Source of the DNA: Thermoanaerobaculia bacterium
GTDB lineage: Bacteria > Acidobacteriota > Thermoanaerobaculia > UBA5066
NCBI GenBank assembly: GCA_038245905.1
Contig: JBBRRY010000002.1
Span: forward strand, 181,606-245,605
Length of the DNA: 64,000 nt
Direction: 5' to 3'
Shown here in pieces: positions 50,104 through 64,000 of this stretch. The notes under the pieces were generated by a model. That model worked only from the letters and a program-made list of their open reading frames with translations, ran no database searches and was not told the origin of the DNA. A program made the translations under genes and the position numbers. Each line of letters starts with the position of its first letter. The first letter of the stretch is position 1.

Positions 50104-50688
50104 ATGGTCAAGACTTCCAGCTCGGCGTTGATGGTCCTGGCCCTGGCGGCAGCCGCCGCTTCGCCCGCTTTCGCTCAGGGACGCCCGGACCCCGCGGCGC
50201 TCATCGCCGCGCAGAAGGACGCCATGAAGGCCTTCTCGGCGATGGACGGCGTCTGGCGCGGCCCCGCGTGGACGATCCTCCCCTCTGGCGAGAAGCACAC
50301 GATCACACAGACCGAGCGCATCGGCCCATTCCTCGACGGCTCCGTGAAGGTCCTCGAGGGCCGTGGCTATGAGGCCGACGGGCGCGTCGGCTTCAACGCT
50401 TTCGGGACGATTTCCTTCAGCCCCGCGAAGAACGCCTACACGCTCCACTCCCACGCGATGGGCAACTCTGGCGACTTCGCGATCAAGCCCACGCCCGACG
50501 GCTACACGTGGGAGATCCCGGCCGGCCCCATGACGATCCGCTACACAGCCGTCATCAAAGACGGCACGCTCAAGGAAGTCGGCGACCGGCTCGAGCCCGG
50601 CAAGGAACCGGTCCGGTTCTTCGAGATGACGCTCGCGCGCATCGGCGATACGACCTGGCCCGCGGGCGGAGCCGTGCCGCAGAAGTAG
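50104..50688 (+). CDS. secreted DUF1579-like beta-rich protein
   Basis: signal peptide, MDGVWRGPAW, TQTERIGPFLDG, FFEMTL; GAGGAGG RBS. Confidence 0.7.
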   Translation: MVKTSSSALMVLALAAAAASPAFAQGRPDPAALIAAQKDAMKAFSAMDGVWRGPAWTILPSGEKHTITQTERIGPFLDGSVKVLEGRGYEADGRVGFNAFGTISFSPAKNAYTLHSHAMGNSGDFAIKPTPDGYTWEIPAGPMTIRYTAVIKDGTLKEVGDRLEPGKEPVRFFEMTLARIGDTTWPAGGAVPQK

Positions 50689-50714
50689 GCAGCGCTCTTC
50701 GTCGGAGGGCATTC

Positions 50715-52277
50715 ATGTTCCAGACGCATCATCCCGGCTGCGCTCCCGTGCTCTTCGCACTCCTCGCGGCGCTTGCGGCCGCGCCCGCCACACAGGCCCG
50801 CGCCGCGCTTCCACCGGGCATCGACGACGCGGCGATCGAGGCCGCCGCCGTCGCGAGCTTCCCGGAGTACTTCGAGCTTCTCTCCCTGCCGAATGTCTCG
50901 ATCGACCCCGCCGACGTAAAGAGGAACGCTGCGTGGCTCGAGGCGGCATTCGGCAAGCGCGGATTCAAGACCCGCCAGCTCGAAAACAAGGGGCGGCCGC
51001 TCGTCTTCGCCGAGTACGCGGGCAGTCGCGCGCCAAAGAAGACGGTCCTCTTCTACATGCACTTCGACGGTCAGCCCGTCGTCCCCTCGCAGTGGGCGCA
51101 GAAGGATCCGTTCCAGCCCGTCGTCAAGCGCCGCGGCGCGGACCGGAAATGGGCCGAGGTCGACCGCGCCGAGCTGATGAAGCCGGGCTTCGATCCCGAG
51201 CTCCGCGTCTTCGCGCGCTCCTCCTCCGACGACAAGGGCCCGATCGTGATGTTCCTCGCGGTCTTCGACGTTCTCCGCGCGAAGAAACTCGAACCCGCGG
51301 TGAACGTGAAGGTTCTTCTCGACAGCGAGGAGGAGGTCAACTCGCCCGGCATCGCCGCCGCGGTCGCCGGAAATACGGCACTCCTCGCGGCCGACGCCGT
51401 CGTCCTCGTCGACGGCCCCGTCCACCCGTCCGGCCGCCCGACGCTCTCCTTCGGCAACCGCGGCGTGGTCACTGCGACGCTCACCGTCTACGGGCCGCGC
51501 GCGCCGCTTCACAGCGGTCATTTCGGCAACTGGGTCCCAAACCCCGCGATGCGCCTCGCGCGCCTCCTCGCGAGCATGAAGGGGGAAGACGGGCGCGTGA
51601 CGGTTCCCGGCTACTACACGCGGACGCATCTGACCGATTCCGACCGGAACGTCCTCGCCCAGGGGCCCGACGACGAGGCGGCGCTCCTGAAACGCACCGG
51701 CATCGCGCAGCCGGAGAAGGTCGGTGCCTCGTACCAGGAGTCCCTCCAGTACCCGTCGCTCAACGTGCGCGGCCTCGCCTCGGCAAGCGTGGGCGAAAAG
51801 GCCGCCAACATCGTCCCGCGCGACGCCGTCGCCGAGCTGGACCTTCGCACGACGGTCGAGTCCGACCCCGCGTTCCTCCTCGACCTCCTGAGGAAGCACG
51901 TCGAGACGCAGGGCTACCACCTCGTCGATCAGGAGCCCACCGACGACGAGCGCGAGCGTTGGCCGAAGCTCGCCCGGTTGAACGCGCACCTCCCCGAGGA
52001 GGCCGCGCGCGAGCCCGTCGACTCGCCCGTCGGCCGCTGGGCGTCGTCCGCGATCGCGAGTGCGTGGCCGGGTGCGCCGCTCGTCCGCATCCGCATGATG
52101 GGCGGCACGCTCCCGACGCACACGATCGTCGGGCCGCTGAAGGCGCCGTTCGTGCAGGTCCCGGTCGTCAATCCCGACAACAACCAGCACGCCTACGACG
52201 AGAACCTGCGGATGGGCCACTATCTGAGCGGCATGCGAACGATGGCGGCGCTTCTCGCGGCGCCGTACGCGGAGTGA
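50715..52277 (+). CDS. secreted M20/M25/M40 family metallopeptidase
   Basis: HFDGQP, RSSSDDKGP, SEEE, D ligand, LHSGHFG, NQHAYDEN. Confidence 0.9.
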   Translation: MFQTHHPGCAPVLFALLAALAAAPATQARAALPPGIDDAAIEAAAVASFPEYFELLSLPNVSIDPADVKRNAAWLEAAFGKRGFKTRQLENKGRPLVFAEYAGSRAPKKTVLFYMHFDGQPVVPSQWAQKDPFQPVVKRRGADRKWAEVDRAELMKPGFDPELRVFARSSSDDKGPIVMFLAVFDVLRAKKLEPAVNVKVLLDSEEEVNSPGIAAAVAGNTALLAADAVVLVDGPVHPSGRPTLSFGNRGVVTATLTVYGPRAPLHSGHFGNWVPNPAMRLARLLASMKGEDGRVTVPGYYTRTHLTDSDRNVLAQGPDDEAALLKRTGIAQPEKVGASYQESLQYPSLNVRGLASASVGEKAANIVPRDAVAELDLRTTVESDPAFLLDLLRKHVETQGYHLVDQEPTDDERERWPKLARLNAHLPEEAAREPVDSPVGRWASSAIASAWPGAPLVRIRMMGGTLPTHTIVGPLKAPFVQVPVVNPDNNQHAYDENLRMGHYLSGMRTMAALLAAPYAE

Positions 52278-52327: not shown

Positions 52328-53326
52328 CTAGTCTCCGAGCCCGAGCGGTCCCGTGAAGACCGCGAGGCCCGTCTTCCCCAGTAGCAGATCGTTGTAGACC
52401 GCCACGAGGCGCGCGGGCGCGGCGGGCACGACCCCCTTCTCGACGACGAAAAGGCGAGGCGATCCGTAGACCTCTTTCTGCCGCAGCGCACTCGAGATCC
52501 GCGAGAGGTTCGCGGGAGCGTTCTTAGCCATCGCGCTCACCATGGCCCGTGCCGCGTCCTGCGGGCTCTTGCCTGCCGAGATCGCGTCCTGGTACGCCTT
52601 CTGCGCGTCCATCGCCGCCTCCATCTGGCTCTTCATCTCCGGCGAGTTCAGGTCGGGCATCCCCTGGGCCTTGCGTGACGCCTTGCCCTGCGCCTTGCCT
52701 GACGCCTTGCCCTGGGCCTCGAACTCCTCGAACGTCATGCCCGCTCCGAACTTCCCCGCGTAGAACGCGACGACCTTGTCGTACGCGTCCCCCGTCTCGA
52801 ACTCGCTCTGACCTTCCGGCAGATTGCTCGCAAAGAAGAGGAACCGGGTTCCGGGATAGAGCGGCACCTTCAGCTCCTCGGCCGCGGGAGCCTTCTGGGG
52901 GCGCACCCCGTCGCTCTGATTGCTCCTCGCGCGCTGCGCGAGCGGGCGCGCGGCGGGGTCGCTGCTCTGCTGGATCGCGCCTTGCGCGGCGCGCCTCACG
53001 AGCGGAACGGGATCGTTGAGGAGGTCCCTGAGGAGCGCCGTGTCTTCGGCGCCGGGCGAGAAGTGCCCGAGCGCGCCTGCGCCCGAGGCGCGCACCGACG
53101 GGAACGGCATCGTCGCGGCCGTGCGCGCCAGCGGCTTGTATTCGAGGCGCCCCGTCTGCGCGACGATCGTCAGGTCGTCGGCAATTCGGCGGGCCAGTCT
53201 CTCGAGCGCGGCCGTGCACGCCGCGGAGGCCGGCTGGGCGCACGCGGCGTCGAGGGGACCGCCCCCCGCCGGCACGTAAACCGCGCGCGCCGACGCGAGG
53301 ATCAGGAGAACGGCGAGAGCGTTCAC
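52328..53326 (-). CDS. secreted HEAT-repeat-containing hypothetical protein
   Basis: short signal peptide, HEAT-like VRASGAGALG / LLNDPVPLVRRAA, then VPLYPG module; GTGA overlap with the upstream gene. Confidence 0.65.
   Translation of the reverse strand: MNALAVLLILASARAVYVPAGGGPLDAACAQPASAACTAALERLARRIADDLTIVAQTGRLEYKPLARTAATMPFPSVRASGAGALGHFSPGAEDTALLRDLLNDPVPLVRRAAQGAIQQSSDPAARPLAQRARSNQSDGVRPQKAPAAEELKVPLYPGTRFLFFASNLPEGQSEFETGDAYDKVVAFYAGKFGAGMTFEEFEAQGKASGKAQGKASRKAQGMPDLNSPEMKSQMEAAMDAQKAYQDAISAGKSPQDAARAMVSAMAKNAPANLSRISSALRQKEVYGSPRLFVVEKGVVPAAPARLVAVYNDLLLGKTGLAVFTGPLGLGD
52668..52715. repeat. 4 x 12-bp tandem repeat encoding QGKA/SGKA/SRKA
   Basis: GCCTTGCGTGAC GCCTTGCCCTGC GCCTTGCCTGAC GCCTTGCCCTGG. 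Confidence 0.8.
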
Positions 53327-54054
53327 TTCTTGCCCCTCCCCTTCGCGGCGTGCGTCTTCAGATCTTCCATTTCCCTCTCGAGGCGCTTCCCCGCCTCCTT
53401 GACGTTGTTGTCGTCGCACGATTTCAGCTTGCACTTCTTCTTGATGCCGTCCCGAAGGGCGTTCAGCTCCTTGAGCTCGACGTCGTAGGCGGCCACCTCG
53501 TCGAGCGCAGCCTCCTTCAGCGTCTCTTTGCGCCCCTTCCGGGCCTCGCACGTCGTCACGTGGAACCGCTCGTGCTTCTCGGCAGCGTCGGCCATTCCGG
53601 TGCACGGCGTGATGCCGTGCAAGAGCTTGATCTGGTTTTCCCGGAGCTTGCAGGTCTTCGTGTCCGTCTTCAGGGAGAAGTTGTAGCGGACGTTGCCGTC
53701 CTTGTCCGCCGTCATCGACCAGCCGGCATTGCTCCACTGGCGGACGGCGATCAGGTCGCCCTTCGGATCGGGCATGTTCCACGTGCACGGGGGAAGCGTG
53801 CCGACGTCCTTCGCCCGCTCCTTCGCCAGCTTGTCCCCGTACGTCTTCTCCTCGGCCTCATAGACGGCCTGCGTCAGGTCTTTTCGCGCCGCCAGCGTTC
53901 GGTAGAACTCCTGCATCTTCGCCGCGTAGCGGATTTCCGCCTCGATGCACGGGAACTGGCAGCAGTCGTCGCAGGCCTTCGTCTCGGCCCGGGCCCGGCC
54001 GGCCGCCATCGTCGACACCAGGAATACTCCGACAAGCGCACGTGAAACGTTCAC
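53323..54054 (-). CDS. secreted Cys-rich protein with HExxH zinc-binding motif
   Basis: signal peptide, 10 Cys, HERFH followed 20 residues later by EVAAY. Confidence 0.65.
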   Translation of the reverse strand: MNVSRALVGVFLVSTMAAGRARAETKACDDCCQFPCIEAEIRYAAKMQEFYRTLAARKDLTQAVYEAEEKTYGDKLAKERAKDVGTLPPCTWNMPDPKGDLIAVRQWSNAGWSMTADKDGNVRYNFSLKTDTKTCKLRENQIKLLHGITPCTGMADAAEKHERFHVTTCEARKGRKETLKEAALDEVAAYDVELKELNALRDGIKKKCKLKSCDDNNVKEAGKRLEREMEDLKTHAAKGRGKK

Positions 54055-54183
54055 CCCGGCGAGTATATTTCGCCTCGATCCTCGGGACGATGAGGCGGGC
54101 GCGGAAGCGGGCTGACGGTGGCGCCGCCGGCAATCGCGTCCTATAGTGCCTCTCGATCTCGTCCTCTACAGAAGGAGACTCGC

Positions 54184-55479
54184 ATGCACCGCATCTCGCT
54201 CGGTGTCCTGGCCTCCATCTTCCTTGCAGCCGCGCCGGCCTCCCGGGCCCATGACCTGAGCCCCGCGGAGAAGACGCTGGCGAGGACCGTCGAGGCCCGC
54301 CTCGGCGAGGAGATGACCGCCCTCGAGACGGTCGTCAACATCGACAGCGGCACCTTCAACGCCGCGGGTGTCCGGGAAGTCGGCCGCTTCTTCGACAAGG
54401 AGCTTCAGGCCCTCGGCTTCAAGACGCGCTGGATCCCCATGCCTGAGGCCATGCACCGCGGCGGGCACCTCGTCGCCGAGCGCGTCTCTCCGAAACCGTC
54501 TGGCAAGCGCGTGCTACTGATCGGCCATCTCGACACGATCTTCGAGGGTCAGGGCCACCGCTTCGAGCGCGCGGGCGACGTCGTCCGGGGTGCGGGCGTC
54601 ATCGACATGAAGGGCGGCGACGTCGTCATCCTGTATGCGCTCAAGGCCCTGCACGCCGCGGGCATGCTCGAGAACACGACCGTGCGCGTCTTCATGACGG
54701 GCGACGAAGAGAACCCCGGTCTGCCCACGTCCGAGTCCCGCCGCGACGTCGTCGCGGCCGCGAATGAGAGCGACGTCGCCCTGAGCTTTGAGTCGGGCCA
54801 GGGAAAGATCGTCCTTGGCCGGCGTGGCCTCAGCACGTGGTCTCTGGATGTCACGGGGGCTCAGGGTCACTCGGCGACCGTGTTTCACAAGGGCGGGGCG
54901 GGGGCGATCTACGAGACGGCGCGCATTCTCGATGGCTTCCAGAGAGCCTTTTCGGCGCATCCCAGCATCACGCTGAACACCGGCCTCGTCCTCGGCGGGA
55001 CGGACGTCGCCTACGACGCGGGTAAGAGCGCGGGGACGTCGATGGGAAAGTTCAACGTCATCGCGAAGGCGGCGACCGCGAAGGGGGACCTCCGCTTCCT
55101 CTCGGACGCCGACCGCGAGCAGGCAAAGTCGAAAATGCTGGAAATCGCTGCGACGAGCCTCCCAAAGACGAGCGCGAAGCTGACGTTCGACGACATGGTC
55201 CCCGGGTGGCCTGCGACCGACGGGAACCGCCTCGTGCTCGACCTGGTCAATGCGGCGGCGCGCGACCTGGGCCAGCCGACGCTCGAAGCCGATGACCCCT
55301 CGGCTCGGGGCTTCGGAGACGTCAACTTCGTCGGCTCCCTCGTAGCCGGCATCGACGGGCTGGGCGTGAGCGGCGAGGGTTTCCACGCCCCGGACGAGAG
55401 GATGGACGCGAAAACGCTTGTTCCCGCCACGCAACGCGCAACCGTCCTGATCGGCCGGCTGCTTCACCCGTCCAAATGA
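54184..55479 (+). CDS. secreted M20 family carboxypeptidase (carboxypeptidase G2-like)
   Basis: signal peptide, IGHLDT, DMKGG, GDEE, GHS, FHAPDE; AAGGAG RBS. Confidence 0.9.
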   Translation: MHRISLGVLASIFLAAAPASRAHDLSPAEKTLARTVEARLGEEMTALETVVNIDSGTFNAAGVREVGRFFDKELQALGFKTRWIPMPEAMHRGGHLVAERVSPKPSGKRVLLIGHLDTIFEGQGHRFERAGDVVRGAGVIDMKGGDVVILYALKALHAAGMLENTTVRVFMTGDEENPGLPTSESRRDVVAAANESDVALSFESGQGKIVLGRRGLSTWSLDVTGAQGHSATVFHKGGAGAIYETARILDGFQRAFSAHPSITLNTGLVLGGTDVAYDAGKSAGTSMGKFNVIAKAATAKGDLRFLSDADREQAKSKMLEIAATSLPKTSAKLTFDDMVPGWPATDGNRLVLDLVNAAARDLGQPTLEADDPSARGFGDVNFVGSLVAGIDGLGVSGEGFHAPDERMDAKTLVPATQRATVLIGRLLHPSK

Positions 55480-56025: not shown

Positions 56026-57522
56026 TCACCGGCTCGCCGTGAGGCGCAGCGTCTCCCTTCGGATCCGGATCGCGATGAGCCCGCATTCGGCCTGCCGCAT
56101 CCAGGGAGCCCGCTCCAGTCCCGCCTCGAGCGCCGCTTCCGCCTCGTCCAGACGGTCTTCGTCGAGGTACGCGTAGCCCAGGTTGATTCTCGCCCGCGCG
56201 CTCTCCGGCGCCTTCTGTGCCGCGTCTCTCCAAAGATCGATCGGCGAACGGTACAGCGCGTTTCGCTTCGCGAGGCCGATCCCCAGTCCCAGCGCGACCG
56301 CCAGTGCGGTTCCCAGCGCCAGTCGCCCCCACACCGGCCGCCTCCACGCAGCCGCATGCGCGGCGTATACCAGCCAGGCCGCCAGCCACGCGGGGCCCAG
56401 CGACGCCACGTAAAGCGGTCGCACTCCGACCGGATCCAGACGCCACACGATCGAGTTGCTCGGAAGAAGAGCGATCAGCATCCAGCCGGTCGCGAAGGCC
56501 GGCCACGGCGCGCGGCGCCGCACGCTCACCGCCCATGCGCCCACGACGGCGAGTCCGGCCAGCCGCACGAGCGTGGGCCCCTCGGTCCAGCCCCATTCGG
56601 GAGGCGGGGCGGGATCGATGCTGATGCGCCACGGGAAAGCCCACAGGCCCAGCATCGAGCTGACCGACTGCACGTTCCCGCGCAGAGCCTCGAGCGGACG
56701 GCGCGCGGCGAGGCTGAAGGCCACCAGCTCGCGGTGCCTCGGCATCACGAAGAGCACGCACGCCGCCGCAAGCGTCCCCGCGAGGATCGGCGCGTTCCTG
56801 CGCAGGCGATCGCGCCATGAGGTCTCGTGCGGAGCCACGGGCGACAGCGTCACCTCCCAGCACGCCATCAGGAGCGGAAGGACGAGCGCCGTCTCTCGCG
56901 CAAGAGGGGCCAGGAACGCGAGAGCCCCCGCCCCGAGCGCTCGCGCGGGAGAGGGCGCCTCTCCGCGCGCCACCAGCCACATCGCGCCGAGAGCGAACGC
57001 CGTCGACAACCCCATCGAGCGGCCCGAGACGTACGTCACCGTCTCGGCGGCGAGAGGGTGAAGCGCCCACAACGCGGCCCCGGCGAACGCGGCGACGTCG
57101 GTCCTGGCGGAGGCGCCGGTTTTCACCGCGTTGCCGTCCAACAGCCAGCACCTGGCGAGCAGAAACACGAGCACCGCCGACGCCGCGTGCAGCGCCACGT
57201 TCACCGCCCGGAAGCCTGCGGGCGACGGGCCATGAAGAACCATTCCGAGCGCGTAACTGGCCTTCAGGACGGGCCGCGCCATCAGCGGCAGCCGTGCGAG
57301 CGTGGACGAAGCCGACGCGCCAGGAGCCCCGACGACGTCCGCTTCGTCGTCGAACACGAACCCCGCCCCCAGCGCCGCCAGGAACGGCAGAATTGCGAGG
57401 ACCACGAGGAGAAGCGGGAGGAAAAGGTTCCGAGCTGTCGTGCCGCGATGTTGGACAGGCTCCATCTCGGACCGCGACGTTATCAAGACAGGCCTCTCCT
57501 CCGGAGCGCCGGACGCGCTCAA
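56026..57522 (-). CDS. GT-C type membrane protein with C-terminal TPR (TMTC-like O-mannosyltransferase family)
   Basis: FVFDD luminal motif, RP, NVALH, ALHPLAAETVTYVSGRS, RN..Y....LW.DA, TPR RARINLG; start uncertain (57522 TTG or 57465 ATG). Confidence 0.75.
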   Translation of the reverse strand: MSASGAPEERPVLITSRSEMEPVQHRGTTARNLFLPLLLVVLAILPFLAALGAGFVFDDEADVVGAPGASASSTLARLPLMARPVLKASYALGMVLHGPSPAGFRAVNVALHAASAVLVFLLARCWLLDGNAVKTGASARTDVAAFAGAALWALHPLAAETVTYVSGRSMGLSTAFALGAMWLVARGEAPSPARALGAGALAFLAPLARETALVLPLLMACWEVTLSPVAPHETSWRDRLRRNAPILAGTLAAACVLFVMPRHRELVAFSLAARRPLEALRGNVQSVSSMLGLWAFPWRISIDPAPPPEWGWTEGPTLVRLAGLAVVGAWAVSVRRRAPWPAFATGWMLIALLPSNSIVWRLDPVGVRPLYVASLGPAWLAAWLVYAAHAAAWRRPVWGRLALGTALAVALGLGIGLAKRNALYRSPIDLWRDAAQKAPESARARINLGYAYLDEDRLDEAEAALEAGLERAPWMRQAECGLIAIRIRRETLRLTASR

Positions 57523-58427
57523 TTCACCGTTTCGTCCGGCGACGGTTGCGCTTCAGCCGCCGCCCCTTCCTCCGCGACCTCAAGCAGCTCTGCCCTTCTC
57601 CGCCGCTTCCGGATCCCCGCGACGATCGCGAGGAGCGAGATCCCGAACCACAGCACGGCGGTGCTCGTCAGGATCGGGATCCAGCGCTTCAGAGACGCCT
57701 GCCGCTCGTAGAACGCCTCGCCGATGTCGATCAGCGTCGCGCCCGTCGCGCTGCGCATCGCCTCGTCGAACGTGTCGCCGTGCGCGACGCGCGCGAGGAC
57801 GATCCGCGGCACCGCCGGGCCGTAGCGCTCGAGAAGGTCCTGTATGAGCGCGCCCGAAAGCGCGTACCCGCGCTCCACCTGACGCCTGTCCCCCTGAAAC
57901 AGGTCGTCCAGCTTCCAGAGCGGCACGCGCGGGCCCGACAGCAGCCCGAGCGCCAGCTCGGTCTGGTCGCGCAGCCGCCACGAGCGCCCCGCAAGCATCG
58001 CGAGCCCTTCGTCGAACCACCGCGGCACCCGCCGCCCGCCGCTCGCCCGGTGGATGAATACGTGCGCGACCTCGTGCGCAAGCACCTCCTCGAGGCCGCC
58101 GTCCGGGTATGACGGCGTGCGCTCGGCCAGGATGACGACGACGCTCCCCACGTCGGAGGTGACGCCGTCCGTGAATCCCGAAACCCACGCCGGCATCGCG
58201 CGTGCGAGCGGCGACGACTCCGGCGCGAGAACGACGCGGATGGGCAGCCCCGGCACATCGAGGCCCACCAGGTCCATCACGCTCCAGACCCAGGAACGCG
58301 GCCCGGCGACGAGGCGGTTCGCGGATGGCGGGAGGCCGGGCTCGGGGTCGAAGACGAGGCGCGTGGGCTCGACCGCCGCGAGCGGCGAAGCGAGGAGGAG
58401 ACCCGCGAGGACACAGCGCTTCCAGAT
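57519..58427 (-). CDS. secreted MA-clan zinc metallopeptidase-like protein with C-terminal TM anchor
   Basis: LAHEVAH plus PRWFDEGLA, C-terminal TM and RKRRRR; no nearby in-frame ATG/GTG start, putative ATC start at 58427. Confidence 0.75.
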   Translation of the reverse strand: MWKRCVLAGLLLASPLAAVEPTRLVFDPEPGLPPSANRLVAGPRSWVWSVMDLVGLDVPGLPIRVVLAPESSPLARAMPAWVSGFTDGVTSDVGSVVVILAERTPSYPDGGLEEVLAHEVAHVFIHRASGGRRVPRWFDEGLAMLAGRSWRLRDQTELALGLLSGPRVPLWKLDDLFQGDRRQVERGYALSGALIQDLLERYGPAVPRIVLARVAHGDTFDEAMRSATGATLIDIGEAFYERQASLKRWIPILTSTAVLWFGISLLAIVAGIRKRRRRAELLEVAEEGAAAEAQPSPDETVN

Positions 58428-58539
58428 GAAGGCTAGGGTACTGCGCCCCGAACCTCCCCAGCGCGATGAGCGCGCCGCGACTAGAAGCAGTTCCCCCGCC
58501 CGTCCGGCTCGCGCATCCGCATGAACCGGTGGTGCGGAC

Positions 58540-59694
58540 TCACGGCGGCCACGACCCGCACACCCGCCGCAGGAGCGAGCGCGCGGCGTATCCGGGCATC
58601 TCCGCGAAGGATTCGAGAAGCCAGCGGTCGCGCAGGAAGGCCGGAAAACCGGCGACGCGCCGAAGCGCCGGAGTGTCTCCCGGGGCGAGAAAGGCGTAGT
58701 CGACGAGAACGCGCCGGACGATGCCGCGGAGGTCCGGGGGCCGGACGCCAAGCGCATAATCGGCCCTCTCGAGCCGTGACGCCGGGAGCGCCGCCAGCGC
58801 GTCGAGTGCGGCGGGAGGCACGCTGTCCGGAAAGGCCCCGTCGAGCCAGGCCAGCCCCGCGTGCGCGGCGAGAACGGCGCGGCGCGCACGAGCCGTTTCA
58901 ACGAGCCGCTCCCAATCGAGCCGGGGCGCGCCGCGAATCACGGCGAGCGAGTCGGCTATCCACCGGATCGGAGGCAGAGCGTTCCATCGCCCCCCGTGGA
59001 CGATCACGTGGAGAAGCTGGTCGGCTGGGCCGAGGACGCGAGTGGCGACGCCGCCGAACTCCACAGGTTCGCTGGCACCCCAGAATTTCTCGTCGGCGGG
59101 CACGTCGTGGTCGCGGAAGAACACGTGCCAGTGCAGGTCGATCTCGGCTCCCTCGTTTCGGAAAGCCATGGCGTGTCTCGTGGCGAGGCCCGCTGCGAGG
59201 GCTCGCCGGGAGATCTTCGGCCATGGCTCCCACCCGACCGCGAGGAGCGTGTCCATCGCCGCGTTCGCGTCCCTTCTTCGCACGAGGATGTCCACGTCGC
59301 TCATCGGACGAGCGCCCACGTCGACGTACCCGCGCGCCACGAGAGCAGCGCCCTTGAGGAGCAGCGTCTCGAGCCCTGCCGACTCGAGTGAGCGCACGAC
59401 GTCGGCACCGCGATGGCGGAGCAGCTGGTTCCGGTACCAAGCCGCGCGGGACACGGACTGGAGCCGGCTCATGAGCGGATGCGTGACGCCTCTCGTCCTG
59501 AGGTTCGCGTGGAGGGCAGGCAGGATTCGGTACGAGCCCTGGTCGAGGAGATCGAACTTCACGCGCGCAGCCCAGCTCTCGAACGCGGCGACGGCCCCGG
59601 GACCCTCGAGGAGCGCCGCCAGGAGGAGAAGCTCCTGCTCGGGAGTGGGACGGACCGAACCGATCGTCAACGGGAGCGCTCCCGGGCCCGCCAC
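58540..59694 (-). CDS. uncharacterised nucleotidyltransferase (NTP_transf_5-like)
   Basis: LLLKGAAL, RPMSDVDIL, IDLHW, LLH...HG, RWIAD, DWE. Confidence 0.85.
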   Translation of the reverse strand: MAGPGALPLTIGSVRPTPEQELLLLAALLEGPGAVAAFESWAARVKFDLLDQGSYRILPALHANLRTRGVTHPLMSRLQSVSRAAWYRNQLLRHRGADVVRSLESAGLETLLLKGAALVARGYVDVGARPMSDVDILVRRRDANAAMDTLLAVGWEPWPKISRRALAAGLATRHAMAFRNEGAEIDLHWHVFFRDHDVPADEKFWGASEPVEFGGVATRVLGPADQLLHVIVHGGRWNALPPIRWIADSLAVIRGAPRLDWERLVETARARRAVLAAHAGLAWLDGAFPDSVPPAALDALAALPASRLERADYALGVRPPDLRGIVRRVLVDYAFLAPGDTPALRRVAGFPAFLRDRWLLESFAEMPGYAARSLLRRVCGSWPP

Positions 59695-61184
59695 GACGCA
59701 CGGAAGAGGAGGCCGCCATGGACCGCGACGTCGGGAGGTCCGAACGCGAGGAGCGCATCCGCGATCGCCGCGTCACCGAGGGTCTTCGCGCGGGGAGCGA
59801 TCCGGGCGTCGACGGGCTCGATCGCGACGAGGGTCATGGGCCCCGTGCGCGGGCGGCCCGCAAGCGCTCCGAGAAGGGTCGCGAGCGCCTCGTGGTCGAA
59901 GGCGAGGCTGAGATCCGGCCGGAGAAGGAGGAAGAGCCCGCCGGGCCCATCGGGGGGCGCCGCCGCCGCGTCCGCCGGGAGATAGCGCGCAAAGGCCCTT
60001 GCTGCGTACGGCGGGAACACGACGACTGAGTCGCCCGGGCGGAATTCACGCGCGACGAGCGCCCCGGCCGCCCGATAGTCTTCGACCGGACGGGCTGTGG
60101 TCAAAAGACTCGTGAGCGCCCACGCGAGGCACACGCCCGCGCACGCGGACCACGCGGCGACGCGCGCCCTGCGGCCCGGCACCGAATCCGCCGCGACTGC
60201 GACTGCGGCGAGGAAGTACGGGAGCCCCGGCAAGAGGATGCGGTCCCACACGATGGGTGCGCCGAGCAGAGAGGTTGCGAAGGTGCCAAGCCATGAGACG
60301 CCCGCTCCCGTCAAGAGAGCGAGAGCGAGGCGCTCGCGCGACGCGACGACTGCCACCGCGCCTCCGAGGAGCGGCACGAAGCCGATTGTCGCGGGAACGC
60401 GGCCGGCCTCGACGCCCGGAACGAGATCGAAGAGGCCGAACAGGGAGTCGAAGCAGCGCGCGGCCAGATCGAGCGTCGTCGGAGGTATCCACCAGCGCTG
60501 ACGGTCCAGCGCGGTGAGTCCTACCCAAAGCGCGCCGAAGGCGGCCGCTCCGGCGGCGAGCCCGGGCGCGAGCGAGAGGACGACCTCCCGGCGGCGTGCG
60601 GGTCGCGCCGCGACGAGGCCGGCGGCGAGAAGGGCCGGAAGCCAGAAGACCGCGACGACGTGCGTGAGCACCGCGGCGGACAGAGCGAGAGCGAACGCGA
60701 GCCGGGCCCGCACGTCGTCAGGTGCGGATGCGAGGCGGAACGCCGCTGCGCCAGCGGCGACGAGGAGGAGAGCGAGGAGCGTGTAGCCGCGGACCTCCGT
60801 CCCGTAGCGGACGAGAAGCGGGTTGACGGCCACGAACGCGCCGGCCGCAAGGGCCCCGCCTGGAGAGGCTGGCGCGAGCCATCGCACGAGAAGGGCGACG
60901 AGCAGGAGACTGAGTACGAGCGTCAGGGCCCTGGCCGCCACGTCCGACCCGCCGAACACAGCCGTCCAGCCGCTGAGGAGGGCGAAGTAGAGAGGCGGGT
61001 GGTGGTTCGCGAGGAGTCCGCGCGCCATGTGCGCGAGGCCGGGCGTTGCGGCGCTGACCGTGGAATGAACCTCGTCCAGCCAGAGTGGTCTCACGAGAGC
61101 CGGCAGACGAAGGACGGCCGCGAGGAGGACGAGGAGGATCGCTGCGACTTCGAACCGGCGCGTTCCGGGAGAGCCCACGATCAT
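59667..61184 (-). CDS. GT39/ArnT-like membrane glycosyltransferase
   Basis: LWLDE, HPPLYF.LL, NP....Y..EVRGY; many TM helices; ATGA overlap with the GT2 gene. Confidence 0.8.
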   Translation of the reverse strand: MIVGSPGTRRFEVAAILLVLLAAVLRLPALVRPLWLDEVHSTVSAATPGLAHMARGLLANHHPPLYFALLSGWTAVFGGSDVAARALTLVLSLLLVALLVRWLAPASPGGALAAGAFVAVNPLLVRYGTEVRGYTLLALLLVAAGAAAFRLASAPDDVRARLAFALALSAAVLTHVVAVFWLPALLAAGLVAARPARRREVVLSLAPGLAAGAAAFGALWVGLTALDRQRWWIPPTTLDLAARCFDSLFGLFDLVPGVEAGRVPATIGFVPLLGGAVAVVASRERLALALLTGAGVSWLGTFATSLLGAPIVWDRILLPGLPYFLAAVAVAADSVPGRRARVAAWSACAGVCLAWALTSLLTTARPVEDYRAAGALVAREFRPGDSVVVFPPYAARAFARYLPADAAAAPPDGPGGLFLLLRPDLSLAFDHEALATLLGALAGRPRTGPMTLVAIEPVDARIAPRAKTLGDAAIADALLAFGPPDVAVHGGLLFRASWRARERSR

Positions 61185-61924
61185 CGCGATTCCGGTGTTG
61201 GAGCCGGTCCGGCGCGCCGGAGCGCGGGCAGCTCGGCGCGCGCTCCACCCGCGCCCGCCGCGCGCCGCGCGAGCGACTCGTGAAGGACGCGCATGACGTT
61301 CAGATCCCTCGCGTTTCGGCCCATCACGGAGTTTCCGTCGTGCAGCCGGTAGAGGAGACACGTGTCCTCGAGGACGAGAACGGGGTGGCCATGCTCGCGG
61401 GCCGCGAGAAAGAACGCGAGGTCCTCTCCGAAGCGCAGCGACGGATCGAGGCCACCCACCCTGTCGAACGTCCTCCGGGTCAGGACCACGGCGCCGAGGG
61501 TGAGCGCGACGACGGGCGCCTGCGGAAGCGCCGTGTCGCGCGTCGAATCAGGGTCGAGCGCCACGGCCCGCGTGTGTCCGAGGACGAGGGCGTCCGGCTC
61601 GGCGAGGAGACGAGGAAGTGCCGCGCCGAGCCAGCCTGGAGTCCAGAGATCGTCCACGTCGAGGAACGCGAGAACCGAGGATCGTGCTGCGAGGACGCCG
61701 GTGTTGCGGGCGGCTGCCGGGCCCCGATTCTCCTGCACGAGCGCGTGGAGTCCGAGCGTTCCGGCGATCTCCGCGGAACCGTCCGTGGAACCGTCATCTA
61801 CGACGACGATTTCGAGACCGGCGACGTCCTGCGCGCGGATCGACGCGACGGCGTCCCGGAGAAAGCGCGCCCCGTTGAAAACAGGAACGATCACGCTGAC
61901 CGGAGGGGGCGTTCCTGCCGTCAT
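61181..61924 (-). CDS. family 2 glycosyltransferase
   Basis: VSVIVPVFNG, VVDDGSTD, NRGPAAARN, FLDVDD, GED, YRLH. Confidence 0.92.
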   Translation of the reverse strand: MTAGTPPPVSVIVPVFNGARFLRDAVASIRAQDVAGLEIVVVDDGSTDGSAEIAGTLGLHALVQENRGPAAARNTGVLAARSSVLAFLDVDDLWTPGWLGAALPRLLAEPDALVLGHTRAVALDPDSTRDTALPQAPVVALTLGAVVLTRRTFDRVGGLDPSLRFGEDLAFFLAAREHGHPVLVLEDTCLLYRLHDGNSVMGRNARDLNVMRVLHESLARRAAGAGGARAELPALRRAGPAPTPESR

Positions 61925-62982
61925 GCTGGAGGCAGCAGACCGGCTACGGCGGACGCGGCCTGCGCGGGGTCGCCCCCGAGAGAGAGCGCGAAGCAGGGGA
62001 CGGACTTCACGAGAGCCGCGAGCGAGGCGAGGGACGCAGCGCCGGCGCCGGGGAGCTGGAACACCGTGCTCGGGGCGAGCGCGCGAAACGCTTCTCCAGG
62101 CGGAAGCGGAAGCACGAACGTCTCGCCGTGTCCCGCCACACGGGGCACGACGAGAGCCCGTAGCGCGAAGCTCGAGGTATCGCCCCCGCCCGGGGCGGGC
62201 GGCAGGAGAAAAAGGGTCTTTCCGTCGGCGCTTCCGGCCCGCTCGAGTCGCGCGCCGATTCCCGGCAGCGCGGGACTCGAGGGCGCGAGCTTCGCGGTCC
62301 CGTAGAGCCGGTGCACGGCGGGACGCGGCGCGCCCGAGACGAGCGCGTAGTCATCGGCAAAATGTTCGAGGCCGGAGGCGCGGCAGAGCAGCGCGGTCGT
62401 GGATTTTCCGGAACCACCTGGGCCCACGAGGAGAAGCGCGTCCGTCCCCCGTCCGACCGCGGCGGCGTGGACGAGGTGCACTCCGTGCGCCCGGAAGAAC
62501 CATGAAAAGAGGGCAAGGAGCGGCGCGCCTCGTTCGTGGATCGTCAGGAGGCTCGCGTCCCGCACCCAGAAAAAGCCGCGCGCGGATGTCTCGTCGAACG
62601 CCGCGAGTCCTCCCGAGAGAGAGAGCGATGCGAAGACGGGCCCCTTCGAGAATCCGCGAATCTCGCCACGGGGCCCGAGATCGTCCGAGGTCCACGGAGC
62701 GGACGGCGGCCCAACGCCCGTCGAGGAGGTGTCCCAGAGGTTCACCGTGAGATCCGGAGCGGACCCGCCCGAGATCTCGAGAGATCCGAGCGCGTCGCGT
62801 GCGAACGACGCGAGCGCGTCGCCAGCGAAGACGAGCCGCACGACCCTGCCGGCGATCCGGAGCGTGAGAGCCCGCGTCCCGGCCGCGGCCGTGGCCTTTT
62901 CGAAGGCCTCCTCGAGTGTATGGGCGAGAACGGGGCCCCGGACAGACCGGCGGACCGCTGACGACGCCGGCGATCCGGTCAT
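61921..62982 (-). CDS. HPr kinase-related P-loop kinase
   Basis: VHAAAV, GPGGSGKSTT Walker A, ADDY acidic pair; ATGA overlaps on both sides. Confidence 0.8.
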   Translation of the reverse strand: MTGSPASSAVRRSVRGPVLAHTLEEAFEKATAAAGTRALTLRIAGRVVRLVFAGDALASFARDALGSLEISGGSAPDLTVNLWDTSSTGVGPPSAPWTSDDLGPRGEIRGFSKGPVFASLSLSGGLAAFDETSARGFFWVRDASLLTIHERGAPLLALFSWFFRAHGVHLVHAAAVGRGTDALLLVGPGGSGKSTTALLCRASGLEHFADDYALVSGAPRPAVHRLYGTAKLAPSSPALPGIGARLERAGSADGKTLFLLPPAPGGGDTSSFALRALVVPRVAGHGETFVLPLPPGEAFRALAPSTVFQLPGAGAASLASLAALVKSVPCFALSLGGDPAQAASAVAGLLPPA

Positions 62983-63437
62983 TCCGGCTTGGTGGAGGCC
63001 CCGGGCACGGCCCGCGGCCAGCCCGTCTCGTCGACCTCGTGAATCGGGTCGAGGAGGAGCAGATCCTGCATGTCTGTGAACTTCTCGAGGCGCGGCGGCG
63101 CGAAGGAGCCGGTCGAGAGCGCGCTCTCGACCGGCGGAAGCGGTTCCGGGGAGGCTCCCGCGGCTCGCAGGACGAGGAGGCCTTCCCTCAGGAGCTCGTC
63201 GAGGAAAAGTGCGAACCCTTCGCGCACGGCACCGGGCTCGACGCCGTGGCGCTCCGCGAGCACACCCGTGATTTCGGCGACGGGCGCGCCCGCCGCGGCG
63301 AGCCGGAAGGACTCCGCCGCGGTGCCGCGCAGCGAATAGTAGGAACCGGTCTCGAGATTGACGGCTACGATCTCGCCGTCGAACGCCTCGTAGGCGACCT
63401 TCGGCGTATTGACTCCGAATCCCGGCCCATCGGTCAT
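62979..63437 (-). CDS. PqqD/RRE-domain protein with C-terminal FAPPRLEKFTDMQDLLLLDPIHEVDETGWP tail
   Basis: N-terminal about 90 aa with three beta strands then three helices (FDGEIVAVNLETGSYYSL...FLDELLREGLL), Pro-rich linker, distinct tail. Confidence 0.8.
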   Translation of the reverse strand: MTDGPGFGVNTPKVAYEAFDGEIVAVNLETGSYYSLRGTAAESFRLAAAGAPVAEITGVLAERHGVEPGAVREGFALFLDELLREGLLVLRAAGASPEPLPPVESALSTGSFAPPRLEKFTDMQDLLLLDPIHEVDETGWPRAVPGASTKPE

Positions 63438-64000
63438 TTTTTCTCCGTCGCGGCTTGCCGGGAACGAGAATAACCGAAGGGGATTCCGCCCGCCGCGCTT
63501 CTCTCCGAGACGACGAGACCGCCCTCGAGGTGGACGATCCGATCGCAGCCCTCGGCGACCGCGGCGTCGTGCGTGACGACGAGAAGGGTCGTCCCAGGGA
63601 GCGCGGCCCTGAGGCGGGCGATGACGTCCTGAACCGTCTGGAGGTCGAGGTGCGCCGTCGGCTCGTCGAGAAGAAGGAGTGCGGGCCGGCGCAGGATCGC
63701 GCGGGCGAGTGCTACGCGCTGGCGGCCACCCCCCGAGAGGGTCGCGCCGTCCTCGCCGACCTGCGTCTCCCAACCCGAGGGAAGCGCCGCGACGATTCCG
63801 TCCAGGAACGCGAGCCGGGCGGCCTCGTCGAGCGCCTCGTGCGGGGCCCCCGGTGTTCCGTAGGTCACGTTCTCGGCGAGGGTCCCTCGGACGACGAGAG
63901 GTTCCTGGAGCACCGTGCCCGTCCTCCTTCGCAGCGAGACGGCGTCGAAGGTTCCGTACGGGAGACCGTCCGCGAGAAGACGGCCCGACCACGGCTCGGC
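63434..64000 (-). CDS. ABC transporter ATP-binding domain (5' end beyond the window)
   Basis: Q-loop VLQE, LSGGGRQR signature, LLLDEPT, VTHD; frame open to the window edge. Confidence 0.9.
   Translation of the reverse strand, partial: AEPWSGRLLADGLPYGTFDAVSLRRRTGTVLQEPLVVRGTLAENVTYGTPGAPHEALDEAARLAFLDGIVAALPSGWETQVGEDGATLSGGGRQRVALARAILRRPALLLLDEPTAHLDLQTVQDVIARLRAALPGTTLLVVTHDAAVAEGCDRIVHLEGGLVVSERSAAGGIPFGYSRSRQAATEKK

Follow-up and report, generated by a model that had tools for sequence, protein, structure and literature searches.

RiPP recognition element (RRE) domains are the usual handle for finding peptides that are made by ribosomes and modified after translation (RiPPs), and the expected partner of such a domain is a separate leader peptide. 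We analyzed a 64,000-nucleotide stretch of a Thermoanaerobaculia genome (assembly GCA_038245905.1, contig JBBRRY010000002.1, positions 181,606 to 245,605; hereafter the window). Its last six genes, all on the minus strand between 58540 and 64000, include one for a PqqD-type RRE protein that carries a leader-like motif and a highly conserved tail on its own chain. We find that this locus is a member of a widespread cassette without experimental characterization, and that the operon is a variant, uncharacterized in the literature searched, of RRE/kinase/nucleotidyltransferase systems that decorate peptides. By analogy with these systems, the product of the locus is probably a peptide or protein decorated with phosphate and sugar.

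The closest described systems are the clusters for linear polyphosphorylated peptides (LPP) and the tailoring genes of lasso peptides, summarized here from the excerpted text of the reports cited. The LPP set comprises a precursor (LppA), a kinase (LppK), an RRE (LppB), a SipW-like peptidase (LppS), an MsbA-like exporter (LppD) and an NTP transferase (LppN); these clusters are embedded in capsule loci and, according to the same excerpt, restricted to Bacillota (Popov et al., Nat Commun 2026, PMC13381572). LppK carries out polyphosphorylation at core residue Ser3 (PMC13381572), and HprK homologues phosphorylate serine in both lasso and LPP precursors (PMC8498205, PMC13381572). The leader motif [Y/W]xxPx[L/V/I/F/A] is the RRE-binding element of lasso and LPP leaders (PMC13381572). 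In the pseudomycoidin system, PsmN is needed to add one or two hexoses onto the phosphate of the C-terminal serine, and a D134A/D136A mutant is inactive (PMC6993621).

All six genes described previously for this region are present in the list of open reading frames (ORFs), and direct reading of the sequence confirmed ATGA start/stop overlaps at the four junctions 63434/63437, 62979/62982, 61921/61924 and 61181/61184. The six-gene run is therefore a real, translationally coupled operon. The family labels given to its products in the preliminary description also proved correct. At the last junction, the genes for the GT-C-like protein and the PF14907 enzyme overlap by 28 nt if translation starts from GTG 59694, or by TTGA if the start is TTG 59670. 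The G+C content of the region is about 0.70–0.73. The operon features are as follows.

63434..64000, minus strand: 3' part of the gene for an MsbA-like ABC exporter, encoding the C-terminal portion of the nucleotide-binding domain (Pfam ABC_tran, 5.8e-13; 5' end open)
62979..63437, minus strand: PqqD-type RRE protein of 152 amino acids (aa) with a conserved C-terminal tail (Pfam PqqD, 5.2e-09, residues 22–88)
63015..63104, minus strand: tail motif of this PqqD-tail protein, residues 112–141 (alignments of 16 and 58 sequences, AlphaFold2 and complex model)
61921..62982, minus strand: HprK/ScmC-like P-loop kinase, 353 aa (TIGR04352 below cut-off; PF27840; 1jb1 profile match)
61181..61924, minus strand: soluble family 2 glycosyltransferase (GT2), 247 aa (Pfam Glycos_transf_2, 1.5e-29)
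59667..61184, minus strand: membrane GT-C-like protein, 505 aa (PMT_2, 2.9e-06; weak, at 28.0 bits against a cut-off of 26.1)
58540..59694, minus strand: PF14907 (NTP_transf_5) enzyme of nucleotidyltransferase fold, 384 aa (3.6e-39; alternative TTG start at 59670)

A homologue search with the PqqD-tail protein (E <= 1e-3, 3332 scored candidates) returned 1655 homologues, nearly all of 140–170 aa and covering about 90–100% of the query. The PqqD match spans only residues 22–88, which leaves a tail of about 64 aa. This tail follows the pattern [FYW]xxPxL and then K[FY]TDMQDLLLLDPIHEVDETGWP, and in alignments of 16 and 58 sequences it is conserved far above the PqqD domain itself. The consensus from these alignments is F-x-P-P-x-L-x-K-[FY]-T-D-M-Q-D-L-L-L-L-D-P-I-H-E-V-D-E-T-G-W-P, with P115, D122, L126, D130, P131, H133, V135, G139, W140 and P141 invariant. 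The copy in the window reads F112-x-x-P115-x-L117, which is leader-like, followed by K-F-T121-D-M-Q-D-L-L-L-L-D130-P-I-H133-E-V-D-E-T-G-W140-P141. The start of the tail, [FYW]xxPx[LFIV], has the same pattern as the leader motif that the excerpt of PMC13381572 gives for lasso and LPP peptides.

Column counts were taken over the 186 of 199 sequences that fit a motif expression, so that the anchor columns, including P115 (P in 186/186), are fixed by this selection. The aromatic position was F in 158 sequences, Y in 17, W in 10 and L in 1, and the L117 position was L in 147, F in 25, I in 9, V in 4 and M in 1. At the position of T121, 142 sequences had T and 27 had S (169/186 together), and a further 10 had E or D. 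Threonine or serine with replacement by glutamate or aspartate is a pattern often seen at phosphorylation sites. The C-termini are unconserved, serine being the last residue in only 16 of the 186.

We next consider whether the tail also exists as a separate peptide. A tail-only profile matched exactly one ORF in each of the 80 related loci, lying 60 or more residues into the PqqD ORF in every case, and its matches across the whole Thermoanaerobaculia genome were the two PqqD-tail genes of this locus only. Since the profile occurs only in PqqD ORFs, there is no free tail-like precursor. The leader motif of a separate YxxPxL precursor was likewise found in the joined locus (the window together with the adjoining contig C48, described below) only inside the two PqqD-tail genes.

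Structure prediction with AlphaFold2 from the 58-sequence alignment gave a mean predicted local distance difference test score (pLDDT) of 83 for the PqqD-tail protein. The model contains a canonical RRE of three strands and three helices (pLDDT above 93). Tail residues 111–120 had a pLDDT of 95, with residues 117–120 assigned as a strand by DSSP; the block 121–130, which has a mean pLDDT of 70, contains a helix at 123–129, and toward its end the chain is poorly defined. The nearest folds to the RRE in the PDB were the lasso B1–leader complexes 5v1v, 5v1u and 6jx3 (6jx3_B), 5v1v_A matching with E 5.7e-05, a template modelling (TM) score of 0.87 and a root-mean-square deviation (rmsd) of 1.3. 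Across TbiB1–TbiA (5V1V/5V1U) and 6JX3, TM scores were 0.86–0.89 and rmsd values 1.2–1.7, all TM scores here being normalized to target length. These complexes resemble the PqqD-tail protein also in the YxxPxL-type start of its tail, but in them the leader is a separate peptide, whereas here the leader-like motif is on the RRE's own chain. The pLDDT values and the DSSP strand suggest that the FxxPxL strand of the tail sits in the leader groove of its own RRE.

We surveyed neighborhoods using one genome per species; relatives were present in at least 529 of 599 candidate stretches, and 80 loci were kept. Neighbors were counted over all 80 of these, short contigs included, both by phmmer with the proteins of this locus and by blind all-against-all clustering. 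The kinase accompanied the PqqD-tail gene in 71/80 loci by either method, GT2 in 70/80 by phmmer and 66/80 by clustering, the PF14907 enzyme in 52/80 and 54/80, and the ABC exporter in 29/80 and 26/80. Clustering recovered the PqqD-tail protein itself in 78/80. By phmmer, the GT-C-like protein was found in 1/80, and the Peptidase_MA_2 protein and the tetratricopeptide repeat (TPR) protein encoded downstream of the operon in 0/80. The usual gene order is PqqD, kinase, one to four GT2 genes, (ABC) and PF14907. Rarer neighbors include a fused double GT2, GT4, sulfotransferases, a GlcNAc-2-epimerase-like protein, SDR proteins, aminotransferases and a Kdo-transferase domain. No family of proteases, cyclases or radical SAM enzymes was recurrent among the 80 loci. 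The recurrent extra ORF clusters examined (4, 5, 7, 8, 12 and 14) were rejected as antisense shadows of conserved genes.

The 80 loci carry more than 15 phylum-level labels: Acidobacteriota, Chloroflexota, Deltaproteobacteria, Desulfobacterales, Verrucomicrobiota, Planctomycetota, Nitrospirota, Cyanobacteriota, Bacteroidota, Ignavibacteriota, Actinomycetota, Spirochaetia, Armatimonadota, Methylomirabilota, Omnitrophota, Clostridia and others. The neighborhood is thus strongly conserved across phyla, and the window genes combine its hallmarks, namely a PqqD protein with [FYW]xxPxL...DPxHxVxxxGWP, an HprK-like kinase, a GT2 and a PF14907 enzyme. At least 1655 proteins under more than 15 phylum-level labels are RREs carrying their own leader-like motif and an invariant tail. 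The full cassette, in the order PqqD, kinase, three GT2, ABC and PF14907, is present in Oscillatoria sp. PCC 10802 (locus L055, NZ_KB235948.1), a strain with no "MAG" label in its record title that would make a practical experimental organism.

The kinase had no match in the local copy of Pfam. Its best NCBIfam match was TIGR04352 (HprK-related kinase A; 1.7e-10, scoring 40.5 bits where the cut-off is 200), and a precomputed PF27840 match, a family named ScmC in the Atlas, is present on its own entry (P0121) and on homologues. A family profile built from 48 sequences matched solved HPr kinases in their P-loop region (1jb1, 9.2e-05), and the Walker A motif GGSGKS and a DDY motif are invariant in the family alignment. 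The pairing of a distantly related P-loop kinase with a PqqD-family protein is shared with HPr-rel-A (TIGR04352 with the PqqD model TIGR04353) and with SynChlorMet ScmC (TIGR04249, PF27840). Unlike members of those families, however, the proteins here score far below the cut-offs (TIGR04352, 40.5 against 200; TIGR04353, 20.2 against 35; TIGR04249, 15.9 against 125).

Models of the kinase in complex with the PqqD-tail protein scored 0.83 (0.81, 0.83 and 0.83 in three runs), and the best of three controls scored 0.02. Among 157 solved complexes 116 attained such a score, as did 2 of 215 mismatched pairs; these counts hold only roughly here since author-made alignments served as input. The runs agreed in at least 78% of contacts, and partner pLDDT was at least 74. 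In the modeled complex, residues 11–35 of the RRE sheet meet kinase residues 294–326, a region with the conserved ALAPSTxFQ motif, and tail residues 120, 122–123, 126–128 and 140 meet kinase residues 95, 104–105 and 188. Of the latter, R105 in P104-R105 is the first residue of a conserved RGEI motif, and residue 188 belongs to the first part of the P-loop GPGGSGKST. These models support binding of the PqqD-tail protein to the kinase, with the conserved tail predicted to lie at the kinase cleft. The conserved kinase segment ALAPSTVFQLPGAG, residues 301–314, forms part of the modeled interface with the RRE sheet. A stretch in this region, F308-Q-L-P311-G-A, fits a loose [YWF]xxPx[LVIFA] expression; it was dropped as a leader mimic because P311 varies in the alignment.

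The PF14907 enzyme was modeled with a mean pLDDT of 93. In an alignment of 45 sequences, K114, G115, D133 and D135 are near-invariant, and by residue numbering, with the two proteins unaligned, D133 and D135 appear to correspond to D134 and D136 of PsmN. Foldseek matched the model to MenT1 (3.6e-05), LnuA (1.6e-03), ANT(2'')-Ia (about 5e-03) and the ribitol-phosphate transferase FKRP (7.2e-03), with TM scores of 0.24–0.36 normalized to query length. Sequence searches of the PDB returned nothing for this enzyme or for the GT-C-like protein. The preliminary description had assigned a nucleotidylation step to the operon; the one tested relative, PsmN, is instead required for hexose addition to a phosphate, according to the excerpt of PMC6993621, and we have not kept that assignment. 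The membrane GT-C, which has about eight hydrophobic segments within its first 360 aa, had also been counted as part of the system, but only one of the 80 related loci has a homologue, which makes it a local extra acquired by this copy. The window GT2 was searched for hydrophobic segments, and none was found.

The window holds only half of the locus. The end of the window coincides with the end of its contig (C2), and an exact 141-nt overlap, unique in the assembly, joins it to the end of contig C48. Across this join the ABC gene forms a single open frame of 574 aa, C48 supplying ABC_membrane together with the first half of ABC_tran and the window supplying the remaining half (Pfam); all NCBIfam exporter-family matches of the window part were below their cut-offs. 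Sequence beyond position 64000, which had been proposed as a check, therefore supplies the rest of the ABC gene, a further GT2 and a second, divergent PqqD-tail/kinase/three-GT2 module. The two modules diverge from start codons about 30–50 bp apart. The features on C48 are as follows.

L003:10162-10857 (contig C48): additional GT2 gene, upstream of the ABC gene (Pfam scan)
L003:9705-10133 (contig C48), minus strand: second, paralogous PqqD-tail gene, 142 aa (PqqD, 1.4e-08)
L003:8638-9672 (contig C48), minus strand: HprK-like kinase of the second module (29% identical to the window kinase, E 3e-28)
Within L003:6583-9672 (contig C48), minus strand: three GT2 genes of the second module, together with its kinase
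L002:12881-14014 (contig C48), minus strand: 377-aa ORF without assigned family, at the end of the divergent module

The tail of the second PqqD-tail protein is LEKFEDMAELIKLDPVHDVSDVGWP, with E at the position of T121 in the first copy. The genome therefore carries a doubled system, and its two divergent modules, five GT2 genes in all and added GT-C gene are specific to this copy. The five GT2 proteins all fall within the cassette GT2 family and show positional orthology. For the GT2 after each kinase, 13 of the 15 best matches among related loci were the first GT2 after the kinase, and the GT2 upstream of the ABC gene had the "third" GT2 of other loci as 9 of its 15 best matches. These positional classes, the first unlike the third, suggest that the transferases are distinct and form an ordered set, as opposed to having arisen by recent tandem copying. 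The 377-aa ORF had no Pfam match and a best Atlas score of 0.77. It was considered as a second PF14907 enzyme, given that it stands where PF14907 is found in other loci, and was rejected (best BLASTP E 1.6 against the window enzyme).

By family, as opposed to direct comparison with Lpp sequences, the locus contains the LPP core of an HprK-like kinase, an NTP transferase, an MsbA-like exporter and an RRE. It is also like LPP clusters, as excerpted from PMC13381572, in lacking a lasso cyclase, in its [Y/W]xxPx[L/V]-type motif and in its setting among glycosyltransferase genes. Unlike them, the cassette has neither a SipW-type peptidase nor a free precursor, its recognition motif is fused to the RRE together with an invariant tail, GT2 genes belong to its core, and it occurs under more than 15 phylum-level labels as against Bacillota only. 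Membership in the LPP group was rejected on the absence of both the SipW-type peptidase and an LppA-like precursor. For the peptidase, TIGR02228 gave 0 matches in this 96.4% complete genome, in a search whose control was positive in 8 of 14 known genomes; for the precursor, a six-frame regular-expression scan of the joined locus found no YxxPxVLxHQxIxFETxxS leader.

With lasso tailoring genes (the paeninodin kinase and PsmK/PsmN, in the excerpts of PMC8498205 and PMC6993621) the locus shares an HprK homologue, a PF14907-type enzyme with an Asp pair and a B1-like RRE, the last supported by the PqqD match and the 5v1v/5v1u/6jx3 folds, with NCBIfam lasso_PqqD models at 25.2 against a cut-off of 80. 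Sulfotransferases are occasional accessories in both settings (PMC8498205 for lasso tailoring). Unlike lasso tailoring loci, this one has no nearby cyclase or separate precursor, and a B2 peptidase is missing from its genome. In lasso systems the kinase targets a C-terminal serine, whereas the C-termini of the PqqD-tail family are unconserved. In agreement with the preliminary description, the window contains no lasso cyclase, leader peptidase, radical SAM enzyme or free precursor, and the same holds for the ORFs scanned in the 20 kb beyond. No Asn_synthase-type domain was found in the locus ORFs scanned by Pfam. The cyclase family (Asn_synthase, PF00733) was absent from C2 and C48, with matches only on contigs C5 (3.2e-9) and C52 (2.6e-4), and the B2 peptidase family PF13471 (Transglut_core3) had 0 matches in the genome. 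A standard lasso set just upstream, which would have explained the operon differently, was rejected on these grounds: the 20 kb of C48 hold sugar-utilization genes followed by the second module.

The operon had been put forward as a candidate both new and RiPP-like. The first of these terms applies to the cassette itself, for which no published description was found in literature outside subscription journals, but the RRE/kinase/nucleotidyltransferase/MsbA-like core is shared with the Bacillota LPP clusters of the PMC13381572 excerpt. The second stands insofar as the enzyme families match those that, in the excerpts cited above, phosphorylate and phosphoglycosylate lasso and LPP peptides; the inclusion of the GT-C and of nucleotidylation in that pathway does not.

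Taken together, these data describe a cassette of a lasso-B1-like RRE fused to a leader-like motif of its own and to a tail of 25 nearly invariant residues, a kinase, one to four soluble GT2 enzymes and a PF14907 enzyme, joined in about a third of loci by an MsbA-like ABC exporter. We propose that it works by tail docking, phosphorylation, capping with a sugar and glycan extension, an account that we consider about equally likely to be right or wrong. The FxxPxL strand of the tail would fill the leader groove of its own RRE, as the fold model suggests, and the RRE β-sheet would dock on the C-terminal lobe of the kinase, placing the tail helix near the P-loop, as in the complex model. By analogy with the lasso and LPP systems, the kinase may then phosphorylate a hydroxyl group of the tethered tail or of a peptide bound alongside it. 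The PF14907 enzyme could cap this phosphate with a sugar, a step for which PsmN is required in pseudomycoidin, and the GT2 enzymes could lengthen the glycan before the ABC exporter, where present, carries the product out. A more specific form of this proposal, which we advance tentatively and consider clearly less probable, is that the fused tail is a self-leadered core: the RRE would recruit the kinase, the PF14907 enzyme and the ordered GT2 set to its own C-terminus, yielding either a protein that bears a phosphodiester-linked glycan or a precursor from whose tail a conserved, peptide-derived glycosylated cofactor or signal is released. If this were true, protein phosphoglycosylation would be a widespread bacterial modification. 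More generally, a tail that serves as the acceptor would represent a new peptide-modification layout, in which one chain combines recognition element and substrate, and a route by which bacterial proteins acquire phosphate-linked glycans.

Several observations weigh against this proposal. The sequence of steps is drawn by analogy; the fold and complex models support it, but it is weakened by the want of an acceptor residue that never varies, since no Ser, Thr or Tyr of the tail is invariant. Among 69 motif-matching tails from related loci, 7 have E, A, N or R in place of T121, 6 of these 7 loci keeping the kinase, and the second module here has E at this position and retains its kinase. T121 is therefore not a universal phospho-acceptor. 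The tail is also invariant where RiPP cores are usually variable, and the ABC exporter is missing from about two thirds of the 80 loci. The placement of FxxPxL in the groove comes solely from pLDDT and the DSSP strand, as opposed to atomic coordinates, and the calibration of the complex score is approximate. As for the PF14907 step, Zyubko et al. (2019) note that PsmN may merely supply substrate to a host glycosyltransferase (PMC6993621, in excerpt), and the excerpted LPP report finds that lppN deletion caused no change in a heterologous host and that LppN activity was undetectable (PMC13381572).

Some of these points would be accounted for if the PqqD-tail protein were an unmodified adaptor. 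Its pseudo-leader would keep the RRE in a "leader-bound" state while the tail docks or activates the kinase, the PF14907 enzyme and the GT2 enzymes, which would act on an acceptor encoded elsewhere or on a non-peptide. The absence of an invariant hydroxyl residue and the substitution of T121 in loci that keep the kinase fit this explanation, and an interaction surface would fit the extreme conservation of the tail, whose residues the complex model places on conserved kinase elements. A linked precursor gene was found in 0/80 loci. However, no candidate external acceptor was found, the leader sits on the substrate in the known RRE systems of the PMC13381572 excerpt, and T or S at tail position −1 in 169/186 sequences, with D or E the commonest replacement, resembles a phosphorylation site. 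We therefore view an adaptor role as possible but on balance unlikely. Leader-independent enzyme complexes have been made artificially by engineers, and an adaptor of this kind would be a natural example of one. Whether the tail is acceptor or adaptor, the cassette offers a tractable test system for PF14907 enzymes and ScmC/HprK-like kinases.

Two further explanations were considered. The GT2, GT-C and ABC proteins might build or decorate a polysaccharide or glycolipid, with the PqqD-tail protein, kinase and PF14907 enzyme regulating the process or adding a phosphate-linked substituent. The number of such genes in the locus (five GT2, the GT-C and the MsbA-like exporter), the sugar-related accessories of related loci (GT4, epimerase-like proteins, aminotransferases, sulfotransferases and a Kdo-transferase domain), the polysaccharide enzymes matched by the GT2 proteins in the PDB and the presence of LPP and paeninodin clusters inside capsule loci (PMC13381572, in excerpt) are all consistent with this idea. 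On the other hand, neither an initiating phosphoglycosyltransferase nor a Wzx/flippase, a Wzy/polymerase or a chain-length regulator was among the Pfam-scanned long ORFs within about 20 kb on each side, a scan that a short or divergent gene could escape. Moreover, the GT2 enzymes are soluble and keep their post-kinase position across phyla, the GT-C occurs in 1/80 loci, and RRE domains are known peptide binders, this one being nearest to lasso B1. A surface-glycan module is thus improbable. Still less probable is a role of the invariant tail as a conserved core that would undergo modification and be set free as a small glycosylated molecule. PqqA, which gives rise to PQQ, and MftA, which gives rise to mycofactocin, are the comparisons for such a peptide-derived cofactor or signal. 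A "core" that is invariant across phyla, the fusion of RRE to peptide and the best NCBIfam match of the window GT2, the mycofactocin glycosyltransferase MftF (7.3e-25; 87.8 bits, below the cut-off of 280), would fit it, but conserved genes for a protease, a radical SAM enzyme or an oxidoreductase are missing from the cassette in the 80 loci, and the Peptidase_MA_2 gene beside this operon has a counterpart in 0/80.

That gene lies immediately downstream of the operon.

57519..58490 (ORF 57519–58901), minus strand: HExxH-containing Peptidase_MA_2 protein, membrane segment at the C-terminus (1.3e-08; start uncertain)

Because homologues were found in 0/80 related loci, the proposal that this gene and the TPR gene downstream belong to the cassette is unsupported, and the Peptidase_MA_2 gene is probably outside it. 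ATG, GTG and TTG are all absent from its ORF between 58751 and 58280; a CTG at 58490, after GGGGGAA, would give the protein a signal-peptide-like N-terminus. The ORF has one hydrophobic segment, which is C-terminal. Farther downstream lie two Peptidase_M20 genes (50508–52277 and 54118–55479, both on the plus strand) and a gene for a HEAT-repeat protein (52328–53788, minus strand), without a visible link to the cassette. On the other side of the locus, L002:1-11480 of contig C48 is a sugar-utilization cluster that encodes a TonB-dependent receptor fragment, a glucoamylase-like protein, a solute-binding protein, two permeases and a GH94 phosphorylase, and it is followed by a GH1 gene at L002:11501-12871.

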